Assembly: GCA_951406725.2 (NCBI GenBank) | Contig: OX597819.1 | Coordinates: 76,198,001-76,262,000, forward strand | Length of the DNA: 64,000 nucleotides | Direction of reading: 5' to 3' | Source: Octopus vulgaris | Taxonomy: Eukaryota | Shown: one piece after another, positions 38,293 through 64,000 of the stretch | Layout of the letters: every line of letters begins with the position of its first letter | How positions within the stretch are numbered: the first letter of the stretch is position 1 | Program-made: the position numbers and the translations under genes | Notes under the pieces: generated by a model | What the model was told of the DNA's origin: nothing | The model's database searches: none | Seen by the model: only the letters and a program-made list of their open reading frames with translations

Positions 38293-39139
38293 GTTAGTTA
38301 GTTAGTTAGTTAATTTGGCTCAAAAGCAAATAGCAAGGCCATGTAGGGGGACATGGAGTTAAGTACAGGGTGGTGTTCATGTAAAGAGTTCAGGCCACTT
38401 GAGGTCCAGGGAGGCTTTGAACAAAGCGGTCGTCGGCATCTTCACCATCTCGTCTGGCAGCTTGTTCCACGGATCCGCAACCCGGACGGAGAAAGCTCCT
38501 CTCCTTCGATTGAGATGAAATCGTCGCAGGTAGAGCTTTTCGGAATGACCCCGCAGCCGACGCTCTGGAGCAGGAGTGAAGAACAGTTCTTTCGAGAGGT
38601 TACACTTCCCGCTTATGATGTTGTGGGCGAGAATGAGATCACCACGGCGGCGGCGTTTTTCAAGAGAACAAAGGTCGAGCGTCCTCAGCCTTTCTTCGTA
38701 GGACAAATTTTTGAGACCATGAACCATGCGGGTAGCCAGCCTCTGGACTCTTTCGAGGTGCTGTATGTCTTTGAGGAGATAAGGAGAAGAGGCTTGAATC
38801 CCATACTCCAATATGGGTCTCACCAGCGTGACATAGAGTGGCAGGAATATGGCTGCTGTGAGCATTCCGAATGACCGTCGAATCAAAAACAGAATTCCGC
38901 GCGCTTTGTTGGCAGCATGGACGCACTGGGCCGAAGGCGAAAAGGAGGAATCCACCAAGATACCCAGGTCCTTTACCTGATCGGTCCTCTCCAGCAGCAG
39001 ACGACCCGGCTCGAAATCAAGTTGAGTTGCAGGAGGAGAGCCGACAGGCAGATGACAGCACTTCGACACGTTCAGACACAGGTCCCAATCGTTAGACCAC
39101 TTCCAAATTTGGTGGAGGCATCGACGAAGATCCTCTATA
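38293..39139 (-). mobile_element. CR1-clade LINE, 5'-truncated, open reading frame retained
   Basis: ORF 38377-39189 gives about 250 uninterrupted LINE residues ('LNVSKC', 'KDLGILVD', 'LVRPILEYG', 'RRRRGDLI'). It has a (TAAC)n tail and is closely similar to 4861-5705. Confidence 0.93.
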
Positions 39140-39147
39140 CTACACAC

Positions 39148-39181
<34 letters not shown>

Positions 39182-39204
39182 ATACACATTTATATATGTG
39201 TGTA

Positions 39205-61377: not shown

Positions 61378-61436
<59 letters not shown>

Positions 61437-61449
61437 ATATATATATATA

Positions 61450-61590
61450 CTGTTGTGTATGGGGAGAGTCATTCTCTTTTAGTACCCTATAATTTAACAC
61501 ACTCACCGGTAAAATTTCCACTCATTTCCTTCTTTATTTTTCTAAAATTATCGTTGCATCCTGCAACCTTTTCAATAGTTGTTGACTCTG
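61450..61590 (-). repeat. Copy of the U3-A8 hammerhead-bearing repeat (GAAA mutated to GAUA)
   Basis: It is the reverse complement of about 62210-62346. The motif at 61542-61578 reads cua UUGAAAA g guugc-aggau-gcaac GAUA auuu uag. Confidence 0.75.
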
Positions 61591-62113
61591 TCCGTTATTC
61601 ACACTGCCTATATATATACATATATACATATATACATATCTAGATAGGACATGTGTACATGAAATATGATATAATCAAAAATTTAAGCTCTGTTATATGC
61701 AAATATGTAAACAACTGTTGGGAGTGTCTAACAGATCGATGAAAACGACAGAATACTATCTCTATTATTGATCAACATAAGTTCCATTAATAACCACTTT
61801 CTTCGGAGATGAGGGTGAAAGTTCCACCGCGTGTGATTGATCAGATATTTCCGAGAAATTGACGTGATGTGTAGGAGTTAGCAAACCGTGGTGAACCGAA
61901 ATTCTTATAGTTCAGAATGTTACAACGCGATAAAATTCCGTCTGTGTTGGTTGGCTTAAAACTAGTCATGAGGCGTACAAAACCAATCAGGCCATGGAAA
62001 ACGACTCTATATTTTTGCTTCCGACTATTTTGGATGCCCGCAAGGAAAGGCTTTTACAGTAACGTACTCAGTTTGCAAGATTCTTTATATGAGTTCGTGT
62101 GTTGAAGCTTATT

Positions 62114-62346
62114 CTGTTGTGTCTGGGGAGAGTAATTTTCTTTTTGTGCCTTATAATTTGACACACCCATCGGTAAAATTTCCTCTTATTTCTCATTTCT
62201 TTTGCGCTAAGAGTCAAGACTATTGAAAAGGTTCCAAGACGCAACGAAAATTTTAGGAAAATAAAAACAAGATATAGTAGAAATGTTACCGGTGAGTGTG
62301 TTAAATTATAAGGCAAAAAGAAAATGCCTCTCCCCAGACACAACAG
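62114..62346. repeat. Fold-back repeat (about 70-bp arms) enclosing a hammerhead motif; probable PLE terminal repeat
   Basis: CTGTTGTGTCTGGGGAGAG...CGGTAAAATTTC pairs with GAAATGTTACCGG...CTCTCCCCAGACACAACAG. Confidence 0.85.
62220..62256 (+). ncRNA. Minimal type I hammerhead motif, U3-A8 variant
   Basis: It reads cua UUGAAAA g guucc-aagac-gcaac GAA AAUU U uag, with a palindromic stem III. The one stem II mismatch is correctly paired in the 61542-61578 copy. Confidence 0.6.
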
Positions 62347-62360
62347 TATATGTATATATA

Positions 62361-62898
62361 TATAATTTCAACAATTGAGGGTAAAATTAATTAGTTATTA
62401 ATCAATTTCACCAAGTGTTCAGTATGCAAAGGGACCATTTAAGGCGAATTCAAATTATTACATTATATAAAAGGGCTTAGTAAAATAAATTACTTCGCCG
62501 CATACTGAACTCATTAGAAATAGCAGCTAAAAAACTTTTTTAAAGCTATTTCTAATACTTAAAGAAAATCTCTCTCATATATAGCGTTTGCTTAATTCAA
62601 CTCACAAAAGTTTGGGGTAAGGACATTAAAAAATCAAATGCTAAGGTTATTTGAGTACGTACGTTTCAAGATTAGTCAAAACAACATTTCTCTCTTCAGC
62701 TCAGAAATTCCTTGGTTTGGATTTGGAAACACTGAAAGCAAGAACATACCCTTTCGAAGATCCGCTCTTAACTAACAGTGCCAACAAACCCAAAATAAGC
62801 AAGTGAATCATTTCTGTTCTCCCCTTTCCACCAGCGTGGGTTAAAATCATCAAACGCTATGCTTATTTCGGTAAAATCCGAAGCATTAATTAGAGGGA
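62361..62898 (-). repeat. Inverted near-complete monomer of the 546-bp repeat
   Basis: It is the reverse complement of 63086-63624 apart from a 1-nt deletion (GGGG at 62614-62617 versus CCCCC at 63367-63371). Confidence 0.95.
62652..62703 (-). ncRNA. Type I hammerhead ribozyme, inverted copy
   Basis: It is the exact reverse complement of 63281-63332. Confidence 0.85.
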
Positions 62899-63280
62899 AA
62901 AAAGTTTTTTAGCTGCTATTTCTAATGAGTTCAGTATGCGGCGAAGTAATTTATTTTACTAAGCCCTTTTATATAATGTAATAATTTGAATTCGCCTTAA
63001 ATGGTCCCTTTGCATACTGAACACTTGGTGAAATTGATTAATAATTAATTAATTTTACCCTCAATTGTTGAAATTATAATGAATCTCCCTCTAATTAATG
63101 CTTCGGATTTTACCGAAATAAGCATAGCGTTTGATGATTTTAACCCACGCTGGTGGAAAGGGGAGAACAGAAATGATTCACTTGCTTATTTTGGGTTTGT
63201 TGGCACTGTTAGTTAAGAGCGGATCTTCGAAAGGGTATGTTCTTGCTTTCAGTGTTTCCAAATCCAAACCAAGGAATTTC

Positions 63281-63332
63281 TGAGCTGAAGAGAGAAATGT
63301 TGTTTTGACTAATCTTGAAACGTACGTACTCA
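63281..63332 (+). ncRNA. Type I hammerhead ribozyme; predicted cleavage after GUA at 63328
   Basis: It reads ugag CUGAAGA gaga-aauguuguuuugacuaa-ucuu GAA ACGUACGU A cuca. The core is canonical, stem III is palindromic, and stem I extends through AAGG/CCUU. Confidence 0.88.
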
Positions 63333-63826
63333 AATAACCTTAGCATTTGATTTTTTAATGTCCTTACCCCCAAACTTTTGTGAGTTGAATTAAGCAAACG
63401 CTATATATGAGAGAGATTTTCTTTAAGTATTAGAAATAGCTTTAAAAAAGTTTTTTAGCTGCTATTTCTAATGAGTTCAGTATGCGGCGAAGTAATTTAT
63501 TTTACTAAGCCCTTTTATATAATGTAATAATTTGAATTCGCCTTAAATGGTCCCTTTGCATACTGAACACTTGGTGAAATTGATTAATAACTAATTAATT
63601 TTACCCTCAATTGTTGAAATTATAATGAATCTCCCTCTAATTAATGCTTCGGATTTTACCGAAATAAGCATAGCGTTTGATGATTTTAACCCACGCTGGT
63701 GGAAAGGGGAGAACAGAAATGATTCACTTGCTTATTTTGGGTTTGTTGGCACTGTTAGTTAAGAGCGGATCTTCGAAAGGGTATGTTCTTGCTTTCAGTG
63801 TTTCCAAATCCAAACCAAGGAATTTC

Positions 63827-63878
63827 TGAGCTGAAGAGAGAAATGTTGTTTTGACTAATCTTGAAACGTACGTACTCA
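63827..63878 (+). ncRNA. Type I hammerhead ribozyme; predicted cleavage after 63874
   Basis: It is identical to 63281-63332, 546 nt downstream. Confidence 0.88.
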
Positions 63879-64000
63879 AATAACCTTAGCATTTGATTTT
63901 TTAATGTCCTTACCCCCAAACTTTTGTGAGTTGAATTAAGCAAACGCTATATATGAGAGAGATTTTCTTTAAGTATTAGAAATAGCTTTAAAAAAGTTTT

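Follow-up and report, generated by a model that had tools for sequence, protein, structure and literature searches.

Introduction

In L1 twin priming, both nicked strands of the target prime on one RNA, and the resulting inversion is joined by microhomology. Synthesis starts at the poly(A) end of the L1 RNA, with the second primer annealing at a variable site. Among Penelope-like elements (PLEs), those of the EN+ type contain an inverted truncated copy, have a tail of 30–40 bp, often at one end only, and target (TA)n; the origin of the tandem and inverted structures and of the one-sided tail is called undefined (PMC8557442). The purified Penelope protein PAc, of the Anolis Poseidon element, cuts and extends both strands from two internal starts whose spacing equals the tail (PMC11167929). 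The term ‘twin priming’ was absent from the Penelope papers searched.

Animal non-LTR retrozymes are non-coding, low-GC tandem units with one type I hammerhead each (PMC7229834; bioRxiv 10.64898/2026.07.22.740005) and are dispersed alongside coding PLEs (PMC7229834). A circular RNA template with mobilization by PLEs has been proposed for retrozymes, and minor circular dimers are mentioned for axolotl (PMC7229834). The 2020 definition of a retrozyme specifies a canonical hammerhead with loop–loop contacts. The 2026 preprint (10.64898/2026.07.22.740005) accepts minimal motifs and leans to local tandem amplification after insertion.

The locus studied in this work lies at the end of the window, the 64,000-nt stretch of DNA that was analysed. 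With a probability of roughly 60%, it is read as a young non-coding hammerhead-motif repeat inserted into (TA)n by a Penelope-type reverse transcriptase-endonuclease, starting at two fixed sites on one RNA that was probably circular. The element represents a new member of the class comprising animal retrozymes and non-autonomous Penelope-like elements. Unlike L1, it starts at two fixed internal positions and may have both arms longer than one unit. With retrozymes it shares tandem, non-coding, low-GC units that each carry a type I hammerhead motif, a dispersed distribution alongside coding PLEs, and the lack of both LTR and ORF. Its unit of 546–564 nt contains a minimal PLE-type motif recognized by eye and without an Rfam match, whereas the retrozyme of the 2020 definition has a canonical one. 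Two-armed insertions, fixed starts and haplotype tests are not described in the covered text of the animal retrozyme literature. The (TA)n target, the one-sided tail and an inverted 5'-truncated copy beside a direct copy, with microhomology at the junction, are shared with EN+ PLEs (PMC8557442, PMC3846280). In contrast to those elements, it has no ORF, a tail of ~98 nt rather than 30–40, and arms that are arrays of whole units, up to 14 units long. As with PAc, for which a dimer is predicted, the target is AT-rich, both strands would be cut and extended, and the spacing of two internal starts would set the tail. However, the PAc template was linear and uncleaved, while that of the element was probably circular, and PAc showed no start-site difference between strands in vitro, while the two arms of the element almost always use different sites (PMC11167929).

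Structure of the locus

Units were numbered U1–U546 on the direct copy at 63079–63624, and the features are listed in Table 1. The inverted 538-nt copy reported in a preliminary description of this DNA is real. The reverse complement of 62361–62898 matches 63086–63624 with 0 substitutions and a single C missing from the run at 63363–63367, and arm A lacks the 7 nt ATGAATC (63079–63085). Its ends had been placed about 240–300 nt from the ribozyme site, with the copy running through that site, and lie 243 and 296 nt from the predicted cleavage position, U250/251. The direct array does begin in a different phase at 62898, as had been described, namely at U366. It has a period of 546 with a single mismatch, at 63045, and overruns the window by 618 nt, to the equivalent of 64618 (L031:4119), giving an element of 2258 nt. 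The outermost 4–8 nt of arm A at 62361 are indistinguishable from the flanking (TA)n, within which target-site duplications are likewise indistinguishable. An ORF with reverse transcriptase and GIY-YIG domains is absent from the element and from the window.

Table 1. Features of the element and of related loci (window coordinates unless a locus is named)
Feature	Position	Strand	Remarks
(TA)n-rich target, left half	62347..62364	.	right half comes after site B, outside the window
Arm A	62361..62898	-	538 nt; outer end U546 = fixed site A; inner end U8
Hammerhead motif copy in arm A	62652..62703	-	
Head-to-head junction	62898..62898	.	one base common to both arms
Arm B	62898..64000 and beyond window	+	3.15 units (1721 nt); inner end U366
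U167 G	63245 (also 63791; C at 62739)	+	in all 4 covering units, both arms
Minimal type I hammerhead motif	63281..63332	+	stem I TGAG/CTCA; core CTGAAGA...GAAA; palindromic ACGTACGT; predicted cut after 63328
Site B (U440-459), internal copy	63518..63537	+	putative reverse-transcription start
98-nt 'tail' between sites B and A	63527..63624	+	
Site A (U538-546), internal copy	63616..63624	+	putative reverse-transcription start
Second hammerhead motif copy	63827..63878	+	
Arm B outer end	equivalent of 64618	+	fixed site B (U448), in (TA)n
Coding family loci	L331:3070-5403; L348:706-3048		778 aa; 781 aa
Coding family loci	L345:3020-5452; L347:987-3404		about 811-843 aa; 806 aa
Related-family examples	L117:2505-2794; L206:1440-2020; L136:292-517; L279:2611-3143		

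Family and sample

The host assembly is 2.8 Gb in size and microsatellite-rich, and the terminal 25-mer has 2322 exact copies in the genome. A small and partly biased share of the family was mapped, consisting of 124 elements at 118 loci: the 39 loci matching the window unit best, 39 further ones drawn from the first pattern matches on contig C1 (40 stretches, with one overlapping stretch left out) and 40 loci chosen for long arrays. Because the C1 set requires the A-site 25-mer, short elements with two B ends would be missed in it, while elements with two A ends would not. L301/L302, L312–L314 and the pair of elements at L092 each appear to be one event present in duplicate; these were kept in the end-site counts, and L302, L313 and L314 were excluded from the analysis of array-wide variants.

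Recurrent inversions, anticipated from the window alone, were confirmed. Within the sample, 87 elements are two-armed in head-to-head orientation, 36 are single-armed and one is complex. A scan of 78 loci revealed no long ORF joined to the unit. The ribozyme-to-tail region of the unit recurs, at 59–72% identity, in at least three further non-coding families. Related non-coding families likewise show the two-armed form, among them family F2, with 1795 first-look candidates. L104:4392-6588 is the sole element with nested inversions (four arms). The roughly 13 units of L037:1854-8806 are identical at all 40608 pairwise sites compared and lie between N gaps; this array is either very young or an assembly collapse.

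Outer ends are fixed and paired

The outer ends of the arms fall at site A (U538–546) or at site B (U440–459), which are about 98 nt apart with B upstream. One end of each kind (A+B) was present in 80 of the 87 two-armed elements and two A ends (A+A) in none; six of the remaining seven have one displaced end, and the other (L082) has an interrupted A arm. Independent choice of site by each arm would give A+A in one third of the A-bearing elements, and the probability of the observed pairing would then be (2/3)^80, or ~1e-14. (TA)n follows 170 of the 174 outer ends. The copies had been taken to start in arbitrary phase, which is incorrect for the outer ends: U546 is reached by 107 of the 110 A-class ends, and 62361 is itself site A. 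The start and end phases, which the preliminary description had suggested plotting, with fixed ends speaking against its proposal, turned out to be fixed at the outer ends and variable at the inner ends, so its expectation held for one end of the arm and failed for the other. Random permutation of both ends was ruled out by the fixed outer ends.

Its suggestion of Penelope-type integration, on the other hand, is borne out by the A+B pairing, by the (TA)n at the outer ends and by the same behaviour in 12/12 opposed pairs of a coding family (see below). That Penelope-type machinery carried out twin priming at two fixed sites is regarded as very probable. Neither strict A+B pairing nor the haplotype test is described in the papers that literature searches listed; the supplementary figures S9 (PMC7229834) and S2 (PMC11167929) may be relevant here.

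The inner ends are scattered across the entire unit, with a small hotspot at the internal TATATA (12 vs 1.9 expected). Neither one full lap (7 vs 6.4 expected) nor the ribozyme site (3 vs 3.5 expected) shows an excess of inner ends, and a length of 525–567 nt is seen in only one of the 80 A arms, that of the window. The near-monomer length of this arm, originally put forward as evidence for a circle, is therefore no such evidence. It is a matter of chance, the arm having started at a fixed site and stopped 7 nt short of one lap. An apparent stalling after one lap, seen as a cluster at U1–8, was due to BLAST cutting at the unit boundary and vanished on re-mapping.

Junctions between the arms are varied. 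Microhomology of at least 2 nt was present at 29 of the 51 filler-free junctions, against 19% by chance, and filler occurs in 36/87. Eight of the 87 are hairpin-like, with inner ends that agree in phase to within 10 nt (P 0.02). This would fit a proposal made for rotifer Penelope elements (PMC3846280), in which the second arm forms when the first cDNA, or an antisense RNA, folds back and primes itself. However, the other 79 junctions lack this hairpin-like form, the lengths of the two arms show no correlation (rho -0.15, 80 pairs), the lengths in 16 of the 80 pairs rule out either arm as a copy of the other, and the arms of L072 have no shared sequence. Fold-back self-priming is in this way largely refuted for most copies, and is a very unlikely origin of the second arm.

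The junction at 62898 was bridged by no contig among those listed for four public runs, which probably derive from other individuals, and so rests on the assembly together with the 86 other two-armed copies. The lack of a bridging contig, which could be cited for an assembly or library fold-back artefact, is uninformative. Arms made by such an artefact would not be expected to stop at fixed sites with (TA)n next to them, nor would an artefact account for 87 two-armed copies with nearly all different junctions under one A+B rule, and it is scarcely credible as the source of the inversion.

Coding Penelope-like families

Coding partners were searched for with a GIY-YIG profile and three protein queries. 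A young coding family of this genome, with a 778-aa ORF, served as a control: in 12/12 of its opposed pairs one end is long and the other short, with a spacing of 147 nt. A fragment of this ORF matches RVT_1 below the cut-off and the full ORF is without a Pfam match; on reading the sequence, the ORF appears to have a GIY-YIG-like end. Since the A+B rule holds for coding elements as well, the rule itself requires no circle. Partial tandems, too, occur among coding elements. Comparison of the unit with the 3' regions of coding families of 778, 781, 806 and ~843 aa, and with the other GIY-YIG loci fetched out of thousands of candidates, showed no homology. A walk upstream of F2 in search of a coding partner ended with F2 being recognized as another non-coding tandem unit. 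In all, four young coding Penelope-like families with intact ORFs were seen (778, 781, about 811–843 and 806 aa). The 147-nt tail of the 778-aa family far exceeds the published 30–40 nt.

Probable single template per insertion

The arms of one locus differ at 51/17426 sites (0.29%), compared with a median of 3.5% to other loci (43 loci), and in 27 of these 43 no other arm matches as well as the partner, with ties or small overlaps elsewhere. Among 45 young loci there are 23 shared-site haplotypes, with each array near-uniform. These comparisons of arm sequences suggest one template RNA per insertion.

Divergence within an arm (0.24%) is the same as that between arms (0.23%; 33 loci), and 215 of the 254 substitutions counted in columns with at least four units are confined to a single unit, the other 39 being shared (66 elements). 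This is in keeping with arrays made at full length from the start, and they look homogeneous from birth. A different history, in which short two-armed insertions grew later by unequal crossover while gene conversion equalized their arms, would draw on the 39 shared substitutions (7/25 in adjacent units) and on two groups of loci: L290 and L305, with partial period-3 blocks, and L089, L295 and L323, where variants are shared across the arms in register with the centre. The partial patterns of several long arrays (L290, L305, L306) are compatible with duplication of the DNA after insertion or with an error of assembly, and the variants shared across the arms with palindrome gene conversion, which could homogenize arms too. 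However, growth by crossover is at odds with a within-arm divergence that is not below that between arms and with the predominance of single-unit substitutions; sharing between adjacent units is at chance level (7 vs 6.3), and the different mutation spectrum of the array-wide variants, described below, is left unexplained. Such a history is considered improbable.

Hammerhead motif

Each unit carries one minimal type I hammerhead motif, defined according to PMC4209133, in which helix III is palindromic; this is the form described there for Penelope-like elements. No hammerhead match was obtained in Rfam at the gathering score, and the weak matches are hairpin matches. The hammerhead core is conserved across subfamilies. 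In the related family F2, the arms of stem I differ yet stay complementary (CCCATG/CATGGG and CCTATG/CATAGG). The circular monomer folds at -150 kcal/mol with a z of -7.8 (40 shuffles).

Circular or linear template

As the preliminary description had noted, copies run through the ribozyme site, and the seam (U245–256) has 0 indels in 338 units. The template was therefore continuous there, which fits a circle and a linear multimer equally. Cleaved linear monomers as the main template were rejected, given neither a pile-up at U250/251 nor seam indels.

If twin priming used a linear multimer instead, long, uncleaved and produced by read-through of a donor array, a circle would be unnecessary. In addition to the seamless ribozyme site, the partial tandems of coding elements are in line with this, as is L056, where same-rank units of both arms carry one private variant. 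Minimal hammerheads cleave weakly in vitro (PMC4209133), with no cleavage in 8/9 Xenopus dimers, and the Anolis element in vitro needs no ribozyme cleavage and uses unprocessed RNA as the dominant substrate, which also speaks against a circle (PMC11167929). Copying from a linear multimer, however, has no means of making arrays longer or of carrying a new variant into all units, whereas variants present in all units and absent from the six nearest loci occur in 40/79 young loci, many of them resting on 2–3 units. Under a strict ‘private allele’ test, to which the nearest-six test is looser, such alleles were seen in only 7/34 loci. Given the many haplotypes of the family and the near-uniform arrays, linear copying would need a one-unit bottleneck followed by re-amplification. 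Nested inversions, in only 1/124 elements, also count against the linear multimer.

The array-wide variants differ in spectrum from those of single units. On the ribozyme strand, A>G makes up 25/69 of the former and 15/206 of the latter (36% vs 7%; P 5e-8), and the enrichment has a P of 0.002 in a polarity-free test. The strand bias of A>G over T>C among array-wide variants is weak (P 0.035), and the 5' neighbours of the variants showed no clear editing preference. One such A>G-type variant is carried by the window locus, where U167 is G in both arms, against A in the closest loci, L032–L034. One reading of the A>G-rich array-wide variants is RNA editing; they could also reflect selection for G–U-tolerant changes in a folded RNA. 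If a linear multimer were edited unit by unit, A>G should appear in single-unit variants, yet it is scarce there. Across all arrays, T>C outnumbers A>G in such variants on the ribozyme strand (35 vs 15, P 0.017), possibly through reverse transcriptase misreading U as C by G–U wobble.

Fully periodic variant patterns, expected from multimeric circles, were found in 8/25 cases against 3.8 expected (P 0.02), a modest excess, the other 17/25 not being periodic; homopolymer sites were removed from this set except that of L058, retained after inspection. In L057 the pattern is G,A,G,A with the other arm in register, and in L051 three alleles recur with period 3. Contigs of presumed-RNA runs cover parts of the unit, and such contigs cannot reveal circles.

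Haplotype uniformity, the A>G spectrum and the periodic variants favour a circle whose one unit was re-read many times. From these sequence patterns a circular template is likely, and the uncleaved linear multimer is a good deal less probable. The circle proposed in the preliminary description thus stands as the likely template, but on arm identity, spectrum and periodicity, the reasoning first given for it having failed.

Proposed mechanism

In the mechanism proposed, tandem copies would be transcribed, and the predicted ribozymes would excise monomers, sometimes multimers, that would then be ligated. A protein dimer acting in trans would nick both (TA)n strands, one subunit beginning synthesis at A and its partner 98 nt further upstream, at B, with each subunit rolling an independent distance. 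The two cDNA 3' ends would finally be joined, often via 1–8 nt of microhomology or short filler. The most specific form of this scheme takes the insertion as the fossil of a ribozyme-made RNA circle, rolled simultaneously from two fixed starts by a Penelope dimer, with edits carried into all units of the two arms and circles of 2–4-mers giving the periodic variants; it is tentative, at somewhat under even odds.

The ~2,300 near-identical copies provide a prediction, namely one RNA, two starts, one per strand, and rolling synthesis. If the circular reading is true, they would be direct genomic evidence for rolling-circle retrotransposition and would explain the origin of Penelope inverted repeats and tails. 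If edits are fixed in this way, there would be a route for RNA changes into germ-line DNA.

Neighbouring sequence

The 546-nt element sits in (TA)n at the right end of an older inverted and direct repeat (61436–62360), whose parts at 61436–61589, 62110–62192 and 62210–62360 are ~85% alike and surround a 0.5-kb spacer. This older repeat is present in 5/318 fetched loci and has good coverage by contigs of presumed-RNA runs. Elsewhere in the window, a 270-aa open frame at 38380–39189 (-) resembles a LINE reverse transcriptase fragment by eye. Unrelated minimal hammerhead motifs are numerous in the flanks of loci L031–L329, frequently in opposed pairs with a few hundred bases between them.
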